Source: a virus. From it: a DNA stretch of 64,000 nucleotides. Positions 595-11,297 of the stretch are shown here, piece after piece (within the stretch, counting starts at the first letter, position 1; every line of letters starts with the position of its first letter). The notes under the pieces are model-generated. The model made no database searches. It was not told the DNA's origin and saw nothing but the letters and a program-made list of their open reading frames with translations. The DNA is taken from positions 1 to 64,000 of IMG/VR virus record IMGVR_UViG_3300033997_000074; one strand, 5' to 3'. Position numbers and translations under genes: made by a program.

Positions 595-897
595 TTGTTT
601 CTCCCTTTTCGCCACTTACGCTTTCGCGTAAGACCAGACTATATCTTCACCCGGTATAAACAATACTTAGGGGCTCCCCATTTCGCCTCACTTGAGGCTA
701 CGGCATCACTGCCTAGTCGTTGAACCTTCCCTTTCGGGCTTGGCTGCTGATTGCCACATAACATATTGTTTTCAAACTTTCACGCTTGAGCCATCATTTT
801 AGAACAGGCTCTACGTTGTAGTCAATACGTCTTCGCGGGTTTCCAGCAATTAAAGGAGTTTTCAAGAGACCTTCCGGTCTCAGGCGACTTTTTTCAA
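1..897 (-). mobile_element. Group I intron (partial) interrupting the sheath-like gene, with the HNH ORF inserted after the P9-like hairpin
   Basis: Minus strand 897->595 shares ordered blocks with the terL intron: GCTGGAAACCC, GTTTGAAAA, ATCAGCAG, CAACGACTA, GATATAGTCT. It has GNRA-capped hairpins (GAGACC-GGAA-GGTCTC, CCC-GAAA-GGG, CTTACGC-GAAA-GCGTAAG). The 5' splice site is only approximate. Confidence 0.6.
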
Positions 898-1881
898 ATC
901 GATTGGTAGACCATCAAACATGTTACCGTCTTGGAAAATGTTTACACCACCAACTTCAGTGTAGAAGTTGTAGTTCTTCTCACGAAGATTGTTTTTAGCG
1001 GTGGCGCTAAGCTTAGAAACAGTAACTCCATTTACACGCTTAAAGTCCCAGTCGTTCGAGCCGGGAGTGTACGCAAGTTGAGCACCCGCCCAAGCAGCTT
1101 CCGGGTAATCCGAGTTAGCAGTTGGGAGGTAAACACCATAAGTACGACCAGCAGACTTAGCGCTAAGAATTGCACCAATGTCGGTAGTGCTGGTAGCTGT
1201 TGCAGTGGCGTCAGCAGTAGACACACCGTAAATCTTACGAACAGCGCCAATAGCATCTGACAGTGCTTCTTGATCAGCAGCAACGTGAGTCTCTGCAATA
1301 AGCAGATACCAACTGTCGTTGTCTTCAGTTACAGCATCAAGAGCTTCTACCCAAGTTTCGGTAGCAGTGGTAGTACCAACAGTGATATTGGAAGAAGCGG
1401 AGAAGCTCCAACCTTCACCCGGAGTTACCGGAGCTACACTGAAAGTGCCATCAAGGTTGTCAGTGAAATTAATCTCTACATCAGTGACAGCAGTATCAAG
1501 GGCTGCTACAATTTCAAGAGCAGAAGCATCAGCGTCAGAAGTGATGGTGTAAGTGGTGCCATTAATTGTGACACTGTACTCTGTGTTATTTGCTACAGTT
1601 CCGATGCTTGCGGTGATCGAGTCAACTTGACGACGACCAACAACAATGCTCGGAGGAACAGCACCAACGCCAGATTGACCAAAGAGCTTGGAAGCAATAA
1701 CATAAACGCTATCAGTGCTATCGAAGTCTTCTGCCACCTGAGTCATGCTCTCGTATACACGAGTACGCTCAGCAAAGTTAGTAAATGTTGCTAGAATCAA
1801 TGGAATCTGGAAACTAGCAGTTTGAACCGGCTGGGAAGCTCGTGTTAGCGTGATACGAATAATCTGATCGAGGTCACTCAT
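898..1881 (-). CDS. Tail sheath-like virion protein (DUF3383-like), exon 1; the last codons of ORF-track call 880..1881 are probably intron
   Basis: 333-aa ORF downstream of the neck genes. The C-terminal part (AAWAGAQLAYTPGSNDWDFKRVNGVTV...NNLREKNYNFYTEVGG) resembles sheath-family proteins from memory. The ORF runs straight into group I intron sequence. Confidence 0.5.
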
Positions 1882-2949: not shown

Positions 2950-3311
2950 GGCGTTGGCCCTATCCTAGCTGCCCATGCCTCGTGGTGGTCAAGAACTCCC
3001 ATATCCCAGCTCTGAACTTTCATTATCTGGTAACGATAACCCTTCCAAATAAATTCATCGGCATCGTATCCTTGTGCCCCCTCTTGCTTTGTTCTTACAA
3101 GGTCAGTTGTCCAAAGCCTGTACCACTCACGAGTGCGATCAGATTCAGGCATCATTTGAACTTCAGAAGGCTTCAAAGGCTGGATATTTGCACGAATTGG
3201 CACTTCAACGATTGGCCCCTCTACCCACACGCCACGGACATAAGAACCCGCTTCTTGTCGGTAGATGGTAAGTGGGACTGTTCTAGTCAGGAGAAATCTT
3301 GGAATAGACAT
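2946..3311 (-). CDS. Head-closure / head-tail adaptor protein (positional call)
   Basis: 121-aa ORF whose start and stop overlap its neighbours in the neck module. Confidence 0.4.
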   Translation of the reverse strand: MSIPRFLLTRTVPLTIYRQEAGSYVRGVWVEGPIVEVPIRANIQPLKPSEVQMMPESDRTREWYRLWTTDLVRTKQEGAQGYDADEFIWKGYRYQIMKVQSWDMGVLDHHEAWAARIGPTP

Positions 3312-3322
3312 TCACTTCTCCT

Positions 3323-3736
3323 TCAGAAAGTAGAACCGTAGGCTTTGCAAGTGTTACAACCACAAGATTCTTCGTGGTCACAAACTTGAATGTTAAGAAG
3401 CTTAGAGCAACTATCTTTACTTCCATACCAAGGGTACAATCCATCAGGCATAAACATGCCTGCACCCTTCATCAGATTTTCAAGAACTTTAAAGTAGCTT
3501 GTTGATACAGAGTTCCACACCTCTATTGAACCAGTGCGTTCACGAGTGCTCCAAGCAGACAATTGTGCATAAGCACTTGCTGCTGCAAACCTTGCTGCTT
3601 TATAAACATCCCCCTTAGAGAAATCTAAAAGCTTTTGAATTTCTTCGTCGGTTAGAAGCATGTAGAATGGAGACGTTTCCGTATCTCCGATCAAAATTCG
3701 AATTAAACTGATCTTTTCTTCGTCAGTCATGGGCAA
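3323..3736 (-). CDS. Head-tail connector (gp6-like) protein
   Basis: 137 aa with N-terminus MPMTDEEKISLIRILIGDTE...LLTDEEIQKLLD, typical of connector/DNA-packaging adaptor proteins. It lies after the capsid gene. Confidence 0.5.
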   Translation of the reverse strand: MPMTDEEKISLIRILIGDTETSPFYMLLTDEEIQKLLDFSKGDVYKAARFAAASAYAQLSAWSTRERTGSIEVWNSVSTSYFKVLENLMKGAGMFMPDGLYPWYGSKDSCSKLLNIQVCDHEESCGCNTCKAYGSTF

Positions 3737-3967: not shown

Positions 3968-3984
3968 AGGTGTCTCCTAAATAT

Positions 3985-4008
3985 AGGAGGCTATATTTCA
4001 AGCCTCCT
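3985..4008 (-). terminator. Rho-independent terminator after the major capsid gene
   Basis: AGGAGGCT/AGCCTCCT 8-bp stem with an 8-nt loop, followed on the minus strand by ATATTT. Confidence 0.55.
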
Positions 4009-4036
4009 TATTGTCTAACTATAAATCCTAAGAGGA

Positions 4037-5098
4037 TTAAACCAGCGACAGACGAACGATAGCACCCGGATTCAGCAGAGCGTTCAGGAAGTTTTGCTCA
4101 GTCATAATCTCGATGATGTCATCTTTCTCGTTCATGTACTCGAACCAGTAGCTACCCTGAGCACGGCGGTTGATGGTGCCGAAACGGTTAGCAGGAGCGA
4201 AGTAGGTCTTGAACATATCACGAACACCAACAGGCATCATGTAGGCATCACCTTCCGGTACGAACGGAACGAAAGTGCCAGCAGCGTTTTCATAACCGGC
4301 AGCACCTGCGTTGATGAAGGTGATACCGAACAGGTCAACATACTCAAAGCGAGCATCGGTAGCCAGCGACTGCGGCTGACCCAGCAGAACAGCAAGGCTT
4401 TGTGCGCCAGCGTCAGACTTCATTGCATCGGTAACATAGGGGTTCAGCAGCAGTGCGTTGAAGAAGCTGTCCGAAGCCAGAACAACGAAGCGGCGGATGG
4501 TGCCAGCTTGACCACCAGTCAGGCCAGCACGAACAGCTTTCTTGGCATCAGCGAAGTCGCCACGCGGGTCAACCGAAGCTGCCAGATTAACACCAATCTC
4601 TTCACGAGTAATACCAAACTCGGTGTAGTAGTTGGTCGATACAGTGCCGTTCGGAGCATAGACAGTACCGGCAGTGATAAGCTGCATACGAGCGGCTTCA
4701 AGGGTCAGACCATGAGCTTCACGCAGGTCAAACATCTTGTCAGCACGGACGTTAGCAACGCTTTCCAGCTCAGCGGCTTCAGCCATAGAGTTGGCAGAAA
4801 CAATACCATCGATGTCATTCGGGGTGATAGCGTCATCTGCCGGGAAGTGCGGAATCTTGAGCAGCAGCGAGTCGCGTTGACGACCAGCGATAGTTTGGTT
4901 ACGCTCATCCCAGTTACGGTCTTCCAACAGAGTGGAGCCACGCTTGGTGCGGGTGATTTCAACAGTCTTCTGACTGGAGAAGGTCGGAGTGAACAGACCA
5001 AGTGCGTTGGTGATACCTACAGTGTTCGGGATTTGAATCAGGCTGTCGGTACGGTCAACTACCTTAGTGCGGTCATTCGGGTTAATTACGAGAGGCAT
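4037..5098 (-). CDS. Major capsid protein, lambda gpE-like
   Basis: 353 aa. The order protease-decoration-capsid matches lambda C/Nu3-D-E. The C-terminal pattern FVPEGDAYMMP...IMTEQNFLNALLNPGAIVRLSL parallels the lambda gpE end as recalled. Confidence 0.85.
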   Translation of the reverse strand: MPLVINPNDRTKVVDRTDSLIQIPNTVGITNALGLFTPTFSSQKTVEITRTKRGSTLLEDRNWDERNQTIAGRQRDSLLLKIPHFPADDAITPNDIDGIVSANSMAEAAELESVANVRADKMFDLREAHGLTLEAARMQLITAGTVYAPNGTVSTNYYTEFGITREEIGVNLAASVDPRGDFADAKKAVRAGLTGGQAGTIRRFVVLASDSFFNALLLNPYVTDAMKSDAGAQSLAVLLGQPQSLATDARFEYVDLFGITFINAGAAGYENAAGTFVPFVPEGDAYMMPVGVRDMFKTYFAPANRFGTINRRAQGSYWFEYMNEKDDIIEIMTEQNFLNALLNPGAIVRLSLV

Positions 5099-7007: not shown

Positions 7008-8537
7008 TCATGTGTTTTCATTGTTAGAAATTGATCCGTCACCAGAACTGCCATCCACTGTACCCGTGCCCGAGCTAAGTCCCTCTGTCATCCCATCACC
7101 ACTTCTTGAAGTCATATTCCCAAGAGCAGCATCAAGCTCTTCTTGAGTCATGGTGTCTGGAACACGATAAGGGATATCAGCCTGCTTCATTACCCAGTTG
7201 ATTGTGTCTCGATTACGCGGGAATGTAGAAACAGCGGCAGTACGTTGAATAAACTTACTCACTTCATCCAGAGATTCTTTGCTCACATTTCCGTAAGTGA
7301 ATTCTGGCATGATTGTTGTATCCCAACCATTCTGTTCAAACAAGGTTCGGACAAGTTGGTGATTAAGCTGATTCTTGATTTCGTCAAGCTTGGCTTGAAT
7401 ACCCATCTCAATGATGCTAACCTTGGTTTCACCAAGGGCGAATGAGCCACCACCTTGTTGACCAAGAGCCAAGAAGTCAGCAAACAAACAAGTCAGAATC
7501 TCTCGGGTGTAGCGATTGATGATCTTGTCCGTATCATGGGCCTTTTGCCCCGTAATACTCATTACTTCAAAATCAAACATCCGCTTGCCAGTTTCATCTA
7601 ACAGCAAAGGAAGAATCAACCCGGATTGCTTAGCTTGGTGCATATTAGCCATTGCCTTCTGATACTCAGCAAAGACAGCTTTGTTCTCGTCAGAAGCATC
7701 GGATGCCATATACTGAGGCGGCAGATACAACACCTTAAAGCCATTCACATCTTGGGCACAGGACAGGGCCTCTGATTCCTGAAAAGCTGTCTTAAACTTC
7801 CAAGCCAACCATGCCCCATTCAAACTACTAACTCCGCAGGGTGAATCTTTCAGCGGATTATTGCGGAACAAAAGGAACTTTTTACGAGGGATTCGTTTAA
7901 CTCCGCCCTGTACATTCTCAGCAGAAGCATTTACAAAGTCCCATCCATACGAGGGGTTTGCTCCGTCTGGAACTACAACTCGCTGGACAAGTCCTGCAAG
8001 CTCTCGTCCACTGTTCTTCCAATACCAACCGTCAATAGTGTCTTGAGCGCGAATAGGAAGTTTCTTTACACCAACAAGCCCGTCATTGAATTTAGACCCA
8101 TTCTCTTTACGACGATATCGAAGAACAATCTCAAGAACAGAGAAACCATATCGGTTAAACGTGGCAGCTTGTTTAATCATGCTTTGCCAGTCATGATCCA
8201 TGTCCACCATCACTTGCTTGAGATAATTGGCTTTATCGGCAAGTTCCTCTTCATACCCTTCAGGAATCTTGACATCCCAAGGAACTCGTGCAATCATGGT
8301 TTCAACAAGTTCAAGAGCAGGGCTGATAGCAGCATCCTTAGCCATCTTCTTGTATGTTTCTATCGCTTGAGGCCAACGAAGTTCATGGCTGCAATCTTCC
8401 ATGATTTGTCCGTTAAGGCTCAGGATTCCATTATAACCTGTCTCTCTGAAAGAGATGCTTGGAATCTCATTATCCCCTTGTTCAAGCTGTACATCTTCAA
8501 CACTCTCCGCAACGGAGGCATCTTGTTCGTCAGCCAT
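7008..8537 (-). CDS. Portal protein
   Basis: 509 aa, located between terL and the protease. Size and synteny only. Confidence 0.75.
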   Translation of the reverse strand: MADEQDASVAESVEDVQLEQGDNEIPSISFRETGYNGILSLNGQIMEDCSHELRWPQAIETYKKMAKDAAISPALELVETMIARVPWDVKIPEGYEEELADKANYLKQVMVDMDHDWQSMIKQAATFNRYGFSVLEIVLRYRRKENGSKFNDGLVGVKKLPIRAQDTIDGWYWKNSGRELAGLVQRVVVPDGANPSYGWDFVNASAENVQGGVKRIPRKKFLLFRNNPLKDSPCGVSSLNGAWLAWKFKTAFQESEALSCAQDVNGFKVLYLPPQYMASDASDENKAVFAEYQKAMANMHQAKQSGLILPLLLDETGKRMFDFEVMSITGQKAHDTDKIINRYTREILTCLFADFLALGQQGGGSFALGETKVSIIEMGIQAKLDEIKNQLNHQLVRTLFEQNGWDTTIMPEFTYGNVSKESLDEVSKFIQRTAAVSTFPRNRDTINWVMKQADIPYRVPDTMTQEELDAALGNMTSRSGDGMTEGLSSGTGTVDGSSGDGSISNNENT

Positions 8538-8540
8538 TCA

Positions 8541-9986
8541 TTAGCCTCCTTGTATGTTGGAAAATGGGTTGTTAGATTTGAGGTTTGTAGATAGAAGACC
8601 TGGACCAAAGTTTGGAATATGTATCCTAGACGCTAGGGCAGCGAAACAGTCGCTTAGCGTATCGACGACATCATCGTGGCCGTTTTTACCCGACTTGCGC
8701 TGTCCCGTGAAGTTCTCCACTTCGTTGTAGAAGAATGTCAGATCGTCATATACCCCATTCTCAAAATCAGTGCCGCAGTCTTTGAGAATATGCATAAACC
8801 CGTTATTAATAAAAGCAGCAACAGGACGGAAGCGATTAAGCTTATCCCCACTCGCCTTCATTTCACGAACAACATATCCTTGACTGATGATCTCTTTCTT
8901 GATTTGAGAGTTTGCAAATCTTGCACTAGCTCCGGGGTCAAGAGGAATGATAATGTCAACGCTTCTACCATCACGCTCTGCGTTTTCAAGAATGAACTTA
9001 GCCCATTCTTCAACACCAATCCGAGTTCGTTGAACGTCGTGAATGAAATAATCACCATTTTTCAACTTACTCATTTTAATAGATACAAAATAGTCTGGAT
9101 CGTAGGTCATATCCTTTGTCTTCTTCGTAGAAGCAAAGTCATATGCGCGAACAGTCTTTACAATCTCGTTCCACGGAGGAGGATTATCAGCTTCTTTAAA
9201 TGCTTCCCGTCTGACAAGACCTTCACCTGCAGCGCGGGCCTCCCAGTTACCGTGCAGCAGAATTTCTTTCTCAATACGCCCAAGACCTTCAAGAAAAGCA
9301 ATATAACTGTCTTCGATGTATGGGTTGTCATATACCGAGGCAGAAATCATCGCAAACGAAAGTGGTTTGATTTGCTTCTGGTGTGAGTCAGGAAGAAGAT
9401 TTCCATCTTCATCTTTTCTTCCGTACTTCTCGAAAAGTTCGTCTCGTGTGTCAGCCCAAATCATTTCGTTATCAATACGAATGAACCAACGAACTTTACC
9501 CTGCTTGTCTGGATCAGGACGACCAAAGAACTCATGCCCGGCCGGGTACAGATACCAGTCTATCCATTTCCTAACCCACGAGTCAGGAAGGGGGTTCATC
9601 GTCGCACGGGCGACGGGCTTCATGTCGGCCTTTGTACGCAAACGAGAGAGAATATAGAGGAACTGAGATTCTTCAAACTGGCACAACTCATCTAGGACAC
9701 ACGAGGAAATTTGTGAGCCTTGAAAATTGTCCGTATCATCTACACGTTCAAAGTGTGTAAAAGAAATCTCTGCCTTTCTCTCTACTTCTTTAACAGGACC
9801 GAGCGTAATCTTCATATCTTTCAATCGAATCTTAGCAGAACGGTCTACTTGTTTATAAAGAGCCTTGGCCTCATCCCAAATTGCTCCGGGTTTGGTCAAC
9901 ATCGGAGTTGTTCGACGAATAGTCAAACCTTTGTAATAAGGGATATGAATATATTTTAGGTGGTGCATAAGGCTAGCGAATGACTT
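8541..9986 (-). CDS. terL: Terminase large subunit, exon 2
   Basis: Walker B VLDELCQFEE, coupling motif ATMNP, and a C-terminal nuclease domain. There is no Walker A unless this is joined to exon 1. Exon 2 begins AAG TCA TTC (KSF). Confidence 0.85.
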   Translation of the reverse strand, partial: KSFASLMHHLKYIHIPYYKGLTIRRTTPMLTKPGAIWDEAKALYKQVDRSAKIRLKDMKITLGPVKEVERKAEISFTHFERVDDTDNFQGSQISSCVLDELCQFEESQFLYILSRLRTKADMKPVARATMNPLPDSWVRKWIDWYLYPAGHEFFGRPDPDKQGKVRWFIRIDNEMIWADTRDELFEKYGRKDEDGNLLPDSHQKQIKPLSFAMISASVYDNPYIEDSYIAFLEGLGRIEKEILLHGNWEARAAGEGLVRREAFKEADNPPPWNEIVKTVRAYDFASTKKTKDMTYDPDYFVSIKMSKLKNGDYFIHDVQRTRIGVEEWAKFILENAERDGRSVDIIIPLDPGASARFANSQIKKEIISQGYVVREMKASGDKLNRFRPVAAFINNGFMHILKDCGTDFENGVYDDLTFFYNEVENFTGQRKSGKNGHDDVVDTLSDCFAALASRIHIPNFGPGLLSTNLKSNNPFSNIQGG

Positions 9987-10291
9987 CTGGTTCTTCAAGA
10001 TTGGTCGCTACTCAATCCCCGCAACATTACTTGCAGCTCTTACTTTCGTAAGAAGTTGAGACTATATCATCACCCCATAGGGGTGCCTACCGCTTCGTCC
10101 TGCTTAGGACTACATTTAGTCGTTGAGGGTTTCTCTTTTAAGAGACTTCCCTGCTGATCACCCATTGTTCCATCCGATAACTTTTCAAACCGTGGCTTTG
10201 GCTTTCGCCTCGCAGTGGTATATCGGCTTTAGGGGTTTCCAGCATTTCAATAGGTTTTTACTTCACCGTTGCCGGTGAAGGGGGCAAATCT
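9987..10291 (-). mobile_element. ORF-less group I intron (305 nt) inside the terL P-loop codons
   Basis: Exon GGGGGU pairs with intron GCCCCC 6 nt in, giving U.G at the 5' splice site, and the last intron base is G. Hairpins: TTCACCG-GCAA-CGGTGAA, GGC-GAAA-GCC, CTTAC-GAAA-GTAAG. Core strings are CAACGACTAAATGTAGTCCTAAG and GATATAGTCT. Confidence 0.75.
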
Positions 10292-10453
10292 ACCCCCGCC
10301 TGCTTGTCCACCATAGAAGATAATATCTACCTCCTCCCCTTCATCAGTGGCATACTTGCTACGCTTACCCGTCCCGTCTCTTAGTGTGAGAAATAACTCT
10401 TGGGGTTTACTGCAAGGGGATATTACTGTCTTATTACTCTTTGTTCCAACCAT
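10292..10453 (-). CDS. terL: Terminase large subunit, exon 1 (54 codons)
   Basis: ...[15 protein letters not shown] joins to KSFASLMHH, recreating the Walker A GGQAGGGKS. The start codon is uncertain: ATG 10453 overlaps the stop of the upstream nuclease gene. Confidence 0.7.
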
Positions 10454-11297
10454 AATACTTCAGTTCAGCCTCCTCACGAGCTTTAACAGCATCGTCAAAA
10501 TTAGCAAACATTCCCAGTCGGATATGTTCGTTATTGACATAGATTTCGGCAGACCACTTTCCTTGTTGAGTATAGAAACTCACTCCTGATTTACCGGAAG
10601 TGTTGTTTGGATCAAGCCGTTTGTTGTAACCTTGGACACTATTCGTTGCCCATCGACAATTTTCTTTACAGTAGTCACCGTTATAGTCTATTCGATCAAG
10701 ACTCATACCGTCTGGTGCTGGACCCATATCTTCGTAAAAATTTTCAAACGAACCGCCAGCTTTAGGATTCCAGCGGTCACAAACTTTAATACCTCTACCA
10801 CCGTAGTTTTCATAACCCAATTGCTGAGGGCAATTGCAACGGCGAAGCATACCTTCGTGGATTTGGTAAGTTCTAGTATTCGACAGACCGTGTGTCTTCC
10901 GACTTTCCTCTCCGACGCAACCGCAGGAGCTGGTGTTTCCCGATTTAAGATTATTCGTTCTAACTAAAGTCAGATTAGGATTTCCACAAGAGCATTTACA
11001 CCAAACTTGTCTAACCGTACCGTAGTCGTATTTGACCTTCGGCCCTTCTGAGACAATGGTGAGTAGGCCGAAACTATTACCCGGAAGGTAATCGGCAGAT
11101 TTCATCCCACAACCGCAAGTGGTCTTTTTCTTACCTGTGACTTGTTTGTGTTCAAGAATAATCGCCCCGCCACAATCACAGACTGCGTTCCACTGGGCTG
11201 TCAGCGCTGTGTCAGCCTCTGTGGGGTTATTTCTGCCTAGGATTGTGAGAAACCCTATCTTCTGGTTGGTGTAATCTTTTAATTTATACTTTCTCAT
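10434..11297 (-). CDS. Free-standing HNH/AP2-domain homing endonuclease
   Basis: [12 protein letters not shown]...[27 protein letters not shown] core plus an AP2-like [40 protein letters not shown]. Confidence 0.8.

Follow-up and report, generated by a model that had tools for sequence, protein, structure and literature searches.

A predicted group I intron in the Walker A codons of a phage terminase gene, adjacent to a putative free-standing homing endonuclease gene

The terminase large subunit gene (terL) of an uncultivated phage is interrupted, within the codons of its Walker A motif (P-loop), by 305 nt that read as a complete group I intron devoid of an open reading frame (ORF). The gene lies on the minus strand of IMG/VR record IMGVR_UViG_3300033997_000074, of which positions 1 to 64,000 were analyzed as a single stretch of 64,000 nt (the window). 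Excision at the two predicted bonds would recreate the natural, conserved terL, and it is highly probable that the segment is an intron and that it is spliced. Immediately upstream of terL lies the gene of a putative free-standing homing endonuclease; comparative genomics and published systems give a chance of even or slightly better that this gene and the ORF-less intron form a collaborative (trans) homing system. Coordinates of all features are collected in Table 1.

Two separate ORFs cover the locus, as had been read in an original prediction made from the sequence alone. The larger, 8541..9998 (-), encodes 485 aa with Walker B (VLDELCQFEE) and ATMNP motifs and is devoid of GxxxxGK[ST]. The smaller, 10247..10453 (-), encodes 68 aa, the residues of exon 1 followed by the tail RFAPFTGNGEVKTY and a stop codon, where it runs off into the intron. 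The GGT codon at 10294-10292 shares its frame with the ATG at 10453, and the AAG at 9986-9984 shares its frame with the downstream ORF. Joining GGT to AAG, as that prediction proposed, restores the conserved reading frame intact and yields a 535-aa TerL carrying the canonical GxxxxGKS as GQAGGGKS. The insertion, in phase 0, separates the codon of Gly54 (GGT, last base 10292) from that of Lys55 (AAG, first base 9986), or GQAGGG^KS, where the caret marks the insertion point. The spliced protein contains Terminase_6N and Terminase_6C domains (PF03237, 35 bits, cut-off 22; PF17289, 36.8 bits, cut-off 22.6) and combines an N-terminal ATPase with Walker A and Walker B motifs and a C-terminal RNaseH-like nuclease, the architecture of a terminase large subunit. 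It is matched by 1367 phage records, the best being Pseudomonas phage vB_PsaM_M1 (41% identity, E 1e-129), which aligns unbroken over residues 5-530. This is the closest isolate TerL; the host lineage itself consists of uncultivated phages with contigs of ~87-93 kb. Across the junction the alignment to uninterrupted Pseudomonas phage TerLs, which read GGAAGSSKSHVGLM and GGAAGAGKSYLGVM, is free of gaps, and P13, S15, Q18 and GG.AG of exon 1 are conserved residues that align to intron-less TerLs.

An Rfam scan of the window places the group I intron family RF00028 at 10301..10037 (-) with 97.4 bits, where the gathering score is 50 (E 6.2e-24, model 1-253 of 253). This match is far beyond chance resemblance, and the proposal of a group I intron lacking an ORF therefore withstood the covariance-model check named for it. 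The segment 10291..9987 has stops in all three frames, its longest internal ORFs are 31 and 35 aa, and an ORF scan of the 305 nt found no intron-encoded homing endonuclease ORF in a peripheral loop. The predicted P1 is found at defined positions: the GGGGGU ending exon 1 (10297-10292) pairs with intron nucleotides 7-12, GCCCCC (10285-10280), in 6 bp that place U10292.G at the 5′ splice site. Directly beside it, intron nucleotides 2-6, GAUUU, pair with the first bases of exon 2, AAGUC (9986-9982), in a P10 of 5 bp. Because the P10 strand adjoins the P1 strand, one continuous 11-nt guide aligns both exons and fixes both splice sites. The last base of the intron is G, as foreseen (terminal omega-G, 9987). 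An in-frame TAG at 10010-10008 restricts where exon 2 can start, leaving in-frame G^A sites after G9996 and after G9987. A 3′ splice site after G9996 was rejected; its product, GGGKNQKSFAS, has KNQ inserted relative to every homolog and to the intron-less alleles, and its P10 has only 3 bp. G9987 was chosen because it gives the gap-free TerL alignment, the 5-bp P10 and the junction of the intron-less alleles, so that the predicted ligated exons read ...GGCGGGGGU^AAGUCAUUC...

These intron-less alleles are close relatives. Their TerLs are 98% (P0001/L005, an ENA contig), 97% (L008) and 95% (L009; both from IMG/VR) identical to the spliced product at the amino acid level, and their genes read ...GGQAGGGKSFASLMHH... 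as contiguous DNA at the predicted junction. L005 has GGC GGT GGA^AAG TCA TTC, and at the same place the window reads GGC GGG GGT-(305 nt)-AAG TCA TTC. The intron-containing allele differs synonymously so that its exon 1 ends in GGGGGU, and this ending provides both the U at position -1 and the pairing of P1. The alignment test suggested for the 535-aa product showed no gap at the junction, and the intron-less alleles carry that junction exactly.

All helices from P1 and P10 through P2-P9.2, together with the P3/P7 pseudoknot, can be written on the sequence with a total of 93 pairs. Over three copies of the intron, 99.6% of pair cells are standard pairs, compared with 36-48% when the partners are slid. 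The several hairpins with GNRA loops that had been noted correspond to three tetraloops: GCAA in L2, GAAA at the tip of the P5 arm and GAAA in L9. The extra hairpin between P7 and the 3′ strand of P3 and the presence of P9.1 and P9.2 point to a phage intron of subgroup IA type. Two strings had been likened to the core of the T4 td intron. They do match the RF00028 consensus (UUCAaAGACUA and AGAUAUAGUCu), while a specific kinship with td found no support from blastn, the T4 record being absent from the 73 matches of the intron among 50,697 phage records. What they resemble is therefore the core of the family and not td in particular.

Searched by megablast against the same 50,697 records, stretches of 3 kb and 24 kb had no near relative, the sole match being a 76-nt intron core in Pseudomonas phage PAP02. 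Beyond the phage group itself, blastn and nhmmer recovered only the conserved core, which is common to introns of N4-like, phiKZ-like, Twort-like and Vibrio phages. Homologs over the full length of the intron came from only three other contigs, all of the same phage group, so that the intron is known in four copies, all from public metagenomes: the window, L013 (IMG/VR 3300036546_000109), L123 (Logan SRR17204926) and L126 (JGI Ga0194138). All four carry the upstream endonuclease gene. Over the whole block from the HNH-like gene to terL, L013 is 96% and L126 94.5% identical to the window, and the intron alone is ~98% identical among the three copies aligned; RF00028 scores are 96.6 bits for L013 and 94.2 bits for L123. 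The window is probably of metagenomic origin, and an assembly chimera joining unrelated reads could in principle create such an insertion. However, the same structure of exon 1, intron and exon 2 recurs in the three other contigs, and because these independent assemblies share it, the chance of an artefact is negligible and the idea is refuted in practice.

The differences among the copies bear on whether the intron is still under selection. In L013, the hairpin at the tip of the P5 arm shows a compensatory change of G-C to A-U (GGC/GCC to GAC/GUC), P9 a compensatory change of C-G to U-A, and P2 a change of C-G to U-G with its loop altered from GCAA to GUAA. Altogether, the first three copies contain two double compensatory changes and two C-to-U changes giving G-U pairs, with the remaining changes in loops or junctions; the fourth copy adds no further compensatory change. 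The two ORFs that ORF finders report separately would also be expected of a decayed relic that no longer splices, leaving terL either a pseudogene of a defective phage or a source of two polypeptides (fragments of 54 and 485 aa). This is very improbable. The full-length covariance match exceeds the gathering score by 47 bits, every core helix is intact, as are P1 and P10, and the compensatory changes that distinguish the copies point to selection acting on the fold. Moreover, exon 1 is kept in frame in four independent contigs with 87-98% conservation at the protein level, and a TerL broken inside its P-loop could not bind ATP.

For a functional intron, the terL transcript would fold into the canonical P1-P10 architecture, and the 11-nt guide would bring the end of exon 1 (in P1) and the start of exon 2 (in P10) side by side. 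Two GTP-initiated transesterifications would then excise the 305 nt and ligate the exons into an mRNA for a functional 535-aa TerL. Two considerations temper this account. Self-splicing initiated by GTP is inferred from family membership and from the essentiality of terL. The covariation, furthermore, is statistically weak: the four copies are 94-98% identical, and a score as high as the observed one arises in 51 of 500 shuffles. Since four near-identical copies vary too little, the Rfam covariance-model score was relied on instead of covariation.

Beyond the original prediction, the putative endonuclease gene upstream of terL appears to make up a single module together with exon 1 and the intron. 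The evidence lies in a comparison of the window with the intron-less L008, whose flanks are 95-96% identical. Homology to L008 spans the ribosome-binding site and ATG of the endonuclease gene (11297-11295), ends at codon 2 and restarts at 9986, the first base of exon 2. In L008, L009 and L005, the same slot is occupied by a different endonuclease (354 aa, HNH PF01844 and NUMOD3), followed by an uninterrupted terL 5′ end (positions 3016-3300 of L008) that encodes nearly the same protein and is strongly diverged at synonymous sites. Synonymous differences affect 29 of 44 codons of exon 1 compared with 44 of 475 in exon 2, making exon 1 ~7x more diverged. Because synonymous divergence is confined largely to exon 1, the exchange boundary coincides with the intron insertion site. 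From this pattern the endonuclease gene, exon 1 and the intron appear to be inherited as one module, and on sequence grounds the two slot endonuclease genes behave as alternative alleles. The HNH-NUMOD3 protein of L005 and L008 shares only a Cys-rich repeat with the window endonuclease.

The upstream ORF of 287 aa matches PHROG 374 (phrog_374, "HNH endonuclease") with an E value of 3.5e-75. In its AlphaFold model (predicted local distance difference test score, pLDDT, 86), residues ~237-283 are predicted to match the AP2 domain of AtERF1 (1gcc), with a template modeling (TM) score of 0.70, a root-mean-square deviation of 1.7 A and a probability of 1.00. A Foldseek search against the PDB recognized only this AP2 domain. 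The closest predicted viral structures are those of phage proteins whose names vary between AP2-domain protein and putative HNH (homing) endonuclease. The Pfam AP2 match is below threshold (E 0.027). The model also contains a predicted beta-beta-alpha element at residues 199-224. The family numbers 3260 database proteins at E<=1e-5, nearly all unnamed, and roughly 180 proteins reach at least 60% identity; His136 is invariant in it, and the N-terminal part holds two Cys-rich repeats (CxCxCG...CGC). In the prophage-like contigs L082-L100 from IMG isolate genomes, a group I core at ~2755-2921 lies directly upstream of a 39%-identical endonuclease homolog at 3001-3615, and other members of the family may therefore be intron-associated or intron-encoded.

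The neighborhood of terL varies among relatives. Where no endonuclease is present upstream, phiPMW has a hypothetical protein and vB_PseuGesM_254 has tRNA genes, while the record of PAK_P5 opens with terL. Because these relatives carry no endonuclease in that place, the 287-aa ORF is not a conserved packaging component. A packaging HNH protein like HK97 gp74, which would be small, needed for cos cleavage and conserved beside the terminase genes of all relatives, was considered and rejected; the protein is 287 aa long with AP2 and Cys-rich repeats, and its slot holds an unrelated endonuclease in close relatives (flanks 95-96% identical) and none in more distant ones. Downstream, a Mu-type portal gene at 7008..8537 (-) (PF06074, E 1.8e-22) starts 4 nt after terL. 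The order endonuclease-terL-portal is also found in Pseudomonas phage vB_PsaM_M1, in which terL is intron-less and the upstream "homing endonuclease" is unrelated, showing no similarity to that of the window.

Homologs of the endonuclease with 67-81% identity occur in the IMG/VR contigs L030-L036 and in L124 and L125. In each, the endonuclease gene abuts, with a stop/start overlap (ATGA), a terL that is split by a P-loop group I intron. When the four copies of the window intron are counted, all 12 of the 12 contigs with an endonuclease homolog of at least 67% identity carry an intron in the terL P-loop. The TerLs of the seven compared (L030-L036) are only 32-45% identical to that of the window. 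These introns occupy three positions (Table 1), sites a and b lying 15 nt and 9 nt upstream of the window site. The Rfam scan missed the P-loop introns of L031 and L035 even at E 0.01; they were counted nonetheless, given their 84% identity to the intron of L124, which itself passes the gathering score, and the split of terL at that place.

The pairing bears on collaborative homing, under which the endonuclease would cut an intron-less terL in or near the P-loop codons during co-infection. Repair of the double-strand break from the donor would copy the endonuclease gene along with exon 1 and the intron, and the intron would split the endonuclease target and protect the carrier genome. The genomic signature of such a system is present, namely an ORF-less intron, an adjacent free-standing endonuclease gene, co-inheritance and an exchange boundary at the insertion site. 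Four observations weigh against this interpretation. Searches for the nuclease domain in Pfam (to E 10), NCBIfam and PDB sequences gave no match. The HNH-like motif, SLDRID...NCRW...N, has an invariant Arg202 where canonical HNH proteins have the general-base His, and because Arg replaces this catalytic residue, the nuclease activity and its target remain putative. L006 has a P-loop intron at site a without this endonuclease, with the gene of a DUF723 protein upstream instead. Lastly, the associated introns occupy three positions and belong to several sequence lineages, which fits any insert that breaks the target and would also fit independent histories.

On the strength of the same observations, the intron could be real and spliced and nevertheless an immobile, vertically inherited passenger, with the upstream gene unrelated to it, whether as a free-standing homing endonuclease gene (HEG) that homes on its own and drags the intron along or adjoins it by coincidence, as a packaging HNH protein like HK97 gp74 or as an inactive DNA-binding protein. 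The Arg in place of the catalytic His, the unmatched nuclease searches and the other upstream gene of L006 speak for this explanation, as does the different endonuclease that intron-less relatives hold in the same slot. HNH proteins adjacent to terminases can, according to the ICP1 report, act as packaging factors (PMC10448857). Such a passenger is nonetheless unlikely, if by no means negligible, given that the endonuclease subfamily is accompanied by a P-loop intron in every contig counted and is conserved at 67-81% among hosts whose TerLs are far more diverged, as expected of a mobile gene. The module boundary, in addition, is the exact intron insertion site, and phiPMW, vB_PseuGesM_254 and PAK_P5 have no endonuclease upstream of terL. 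Collaborative homing of the endonuclease gene with the intron accordingly keeps the slight preference stated at the outset.

The P-loop codons also attract another kind of element. In the TerL clade, inteins occupy GGQAGGGK^S/T, which is one codon to the 3′ side of the window site (P0056, P0062, P0064 and L019, 1825-4428), and those of P0056 and P0062 contain LAGLIDADG/Hom_end domains. Because introns occur at three sites and inteins at a fourth, K^S, the ~27 nt that encode the P-loop are a hot-spot for self-splicing elements. A further step, put forward tentatively and at rather less than an even chance, is that the P-loop is a homing hot-spot at which at least three to four intron lineages have been recruited repeatedly as interchangeable "immunity inserts", with the endonuclease and not the intron as the driver. 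If true, introns would shield a genome against its own terL-targeting endonuclease. Further group I introns were observed in terL of relatives at L024 3397-3608, L025 448-659 and 1741-1952, L018 1370-1671, L030 4466-4697 and L124 4497-4708. By sequence, terL is multiply invaded in this phage group, with extra introns around residues 144-164 and around residue 493.

Table 1. Features of the terL locus and insertion sites of P-loop introns. Positions are those of the window unless a contig is named; (-) denotes the minus strand, nucleotide i of the intron lies at window coordinate 10292 - i, and a caret marks the insertion point.
Feature	Position	Description
ORF-less group I intron	9987..10291 (-)	305 nt, phase 0; RF00028 match; segment missing from intron-less L005, L008, L009
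Internal guide sequence GAUUUGCCCCC	10280..10290 (-)	11 nt, P1 and P10 strands; all 11 pairs kept in 3 copies
P2	i13-19 / i24-30; 10262..10279 (-)	GCAA loop
P3	i38-44 (10248-10254) / i200-206	
P4-P6 domain	10126..10244 (-)	contains P4, P5 with arm, P6, P6a
P4	i48-53 / i135-140	
P5	i57-59 / i129-131	long P5abc-like arm i60-122, GAAA at tip
P6	i141-143 / i163-165	
P6a	i147-151 / i156-160	
Catalytic core, 3′ half	10060..10121 (-)	P7, P7.1/7.2-like hairpin, P3 3′ strand, P8, J8/7; RF00028 consensus strings
P7	i171-175 GACUA / i228-232 UAGUC	pseudoknotted with P3
P7.1/7.2 position	i182-195	single hairpin
P8	i207-221	
Intron 3′ portion	9987..10054 (-)	P9, P9.1, P9.2, tail, omega-G
P9	i238-255	GAAA loop
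P9.1	i256-273	
P9.2	i275-293	
Tail and omega-G	i294-305	12-nt tail; omega-G = i305 (9987)
terL exon 1	10292..10453 (-)	54 codons, ATG at 10453 to GGT 10294-10292; N-terminus up to GGQAGGG of Walker A
terL exon 2	8541..9986 (-)	AAG (Lys55 of GKS) to stop; Walker B VLDELCQFEE, ATMNP, RNaseH-like nuclease domain
Free-standing putative homing endonuclease	10434..11297 (-)	287 aa; HNH-like, C-terminal AP2; stop overlaps terL start by 20 nt
Exchangeable module (apparent)	9987..11294 (-)	endonuclease ORF from codon 2, terL exon 1 and intron; 1.3 kb
Alternative slot endonuclease	L005 158-1222; L008 1967-3031	equivalent of window 10434..11297; upstream ribosome-binding site and ATG shared
P-loop site a	GG^(Q/A)AGxGKS	L030, L031, L032, L033, L035, L124, L125; also L006
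Site a introns, coordinates	L006 3749-4015; L125 ~3983-4272	
P-loop site b	GGAA^GSSKS	L034, L036
P-loop site c	GGG^KS	window, L013, L123, L126

A second group I intron, likewise beyond the original prediction, is found in the window at 615..905 (-) with an RF00028 score of 79.9 bits. It interrupts the tail sheath gene, whose ORF at 880..1881 (-) matches phrog_205 over profile positions 14-319 of 455; the second sheath exon is outside the window. An ORF that extends from ~594 (-) off the window start, directly 3′ of the core of the second intron, encodes a canonical HNH homing endonuclease (phrog_655, motif ESHHIVPRHAGGDDSKDNLIVL). From its position, this endonuclease is probably encoded within the 3′ part of the second intron.

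The terL intron has consequences for the annotation of viral genomes. It had been anticipated that automated annotation would report a truncated terminase and an orphan ORF, and the gene calls of L123 are indeed an 89-aa ORF and a 460-aa ORF. Across the gene calls of L123-L125, this essential gene is split into an orphan ORF of 68-89 aa and a "terminase" without its ATP-binding loop. Therefore, TerL phylogenies, packaging-type prediction and metagenomic viral marker counts will mishandle such phages unless introns are modeled. The locus is also a clean natural example of intron-plus and intron-less alleles with 95-96% identical flanks, in which an endonuclease gene, the neighboring stretch of its candidate target and an ORF-less intron appear to move as one unit whose boundary is exactly at the insertion site. 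Because the module is small (1.3 kb) and the sequences of the donor and of an L008-type recipient are known, the collaborative-homing model is directly testable with synthetic DNA.

The arrangement itself is already known and constitutes no new category, the layout having been demonstrated experimentally in the Vibrio phage ICP1, in T7-like phages and in cyanophage S-PM2. Modestly new are the exact P-loop site, the clean pair of intron-plus and intron-less alleles, and a subfamily of AP2/HNH-like proteins strictly coupled to introns at three neighboring sites. The closest parallel is terL of ICP1, which contains an intron with an adjacent free-standing T5orf172 HEG; splicing was shown by RNA sequencing and reverse transcription PCR, and the authors proposed collaborative homing (Barth et al. 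2023, PMC10448857). Like the gene in the window, that of ICP1 opens with a short N-terminal exon left unannotated and continues in a large C-terminal one, the part that pipelines label "terminase"; its intron is ORF-less as well, and its free-standing HEG neighbors exon 1 instead of lying within the intron (PMC10448857). The two differ in phage lineage and in endonuclease, T5orf172 in ICP1 and AP2/HNH-like in the window, and splicing was seen experimentally in ICP1 whereas in the window it is predicted from sequence (PMC10448857). That study also defines the IPA-HNH class of HEGs, in which a divergent HNH invisible to Pfam is combined with a C-terminal AP2 domain (PMC10448857). The 287-aa ORF resembles this class in its C-terminal AP2 domain and in having no HNH visible to Pfam; however, the HNH-like stretch occupies the middle of the protein, after the two N-terminal Cys-rich repeats, whereas that of IPA-HNH proteins is described there as N-terminal (PMC10448857).

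Three further systems share with the window an ORF-less or HEG-defective intron in an essential gene and an endonuclease gene beside that gene, as well as co-inheritance and a recombination boundary at the target gene. F-CphI is reported, in work attributed to Zeng et al. in 2009, to act with the psbA intron of cyanophage S-PM2 in collaborative homing. Likewise, F-TslI is said to serve the DNA polymerase intron of T7-like phages by collaborative homing, as Bonocora and Shub reportedly described in 2009. For T4 MobE and the nrdB intron, trans homing has been demonstrated (Wilson & Edgell 2009, PMC2790892). Experiments on all three showed that DNA is cleaved or nicked at the insertion site or close to it; in the window, the evidence for such a system is its genomic signature. 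The window endonuclease is also of a different family, with Arg in the place of the canonical HNH His. Collaborative or trans homing has been reviewed, with terminases given as typical intron targets (PMC3984707).

Terminase genes of phages with Gram-positive hosts provide another comparison, belonging to the same host gene class and containing group I introns of the self-splicing type in a conserved region. The terminase gene of Lactobacillus phage LL-H reportedly contains one, described by Mikkonen and Alatossava in 1995, and such introns are said to have been known since then. The terminase introns of Bacillus phage Moonbeam carry embedded HEGs (PMC4299906), unlike the ORF-less intron of the window, and both LL-H and Moonbeam differ from the window phage in their Gram-positive hosts.

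With the IA-type phage introns (T4 td, nrdB and sunY; Twort; SPO1), the window intron has in common the core strings CAACGACUA and GAUAUAGUCU in P7 and J8/7, the extra hairpin between P7 and P3′ (P7.1/7.2-like), the P9.1/P9.2 extensions and a protein-coding host gene. It differs from them in its single P7.1/7.2 hairpin and large P5abc-like arm and in the lack of blastn similarity to T4. Finally, the inteins of the TerL P-loop are removed at the protein level and have their own HEG of LAGLIDADG type, whereas the window element, without an ORF, would be removed at the RNA level; both nevertheless exploit the same conserved codons.

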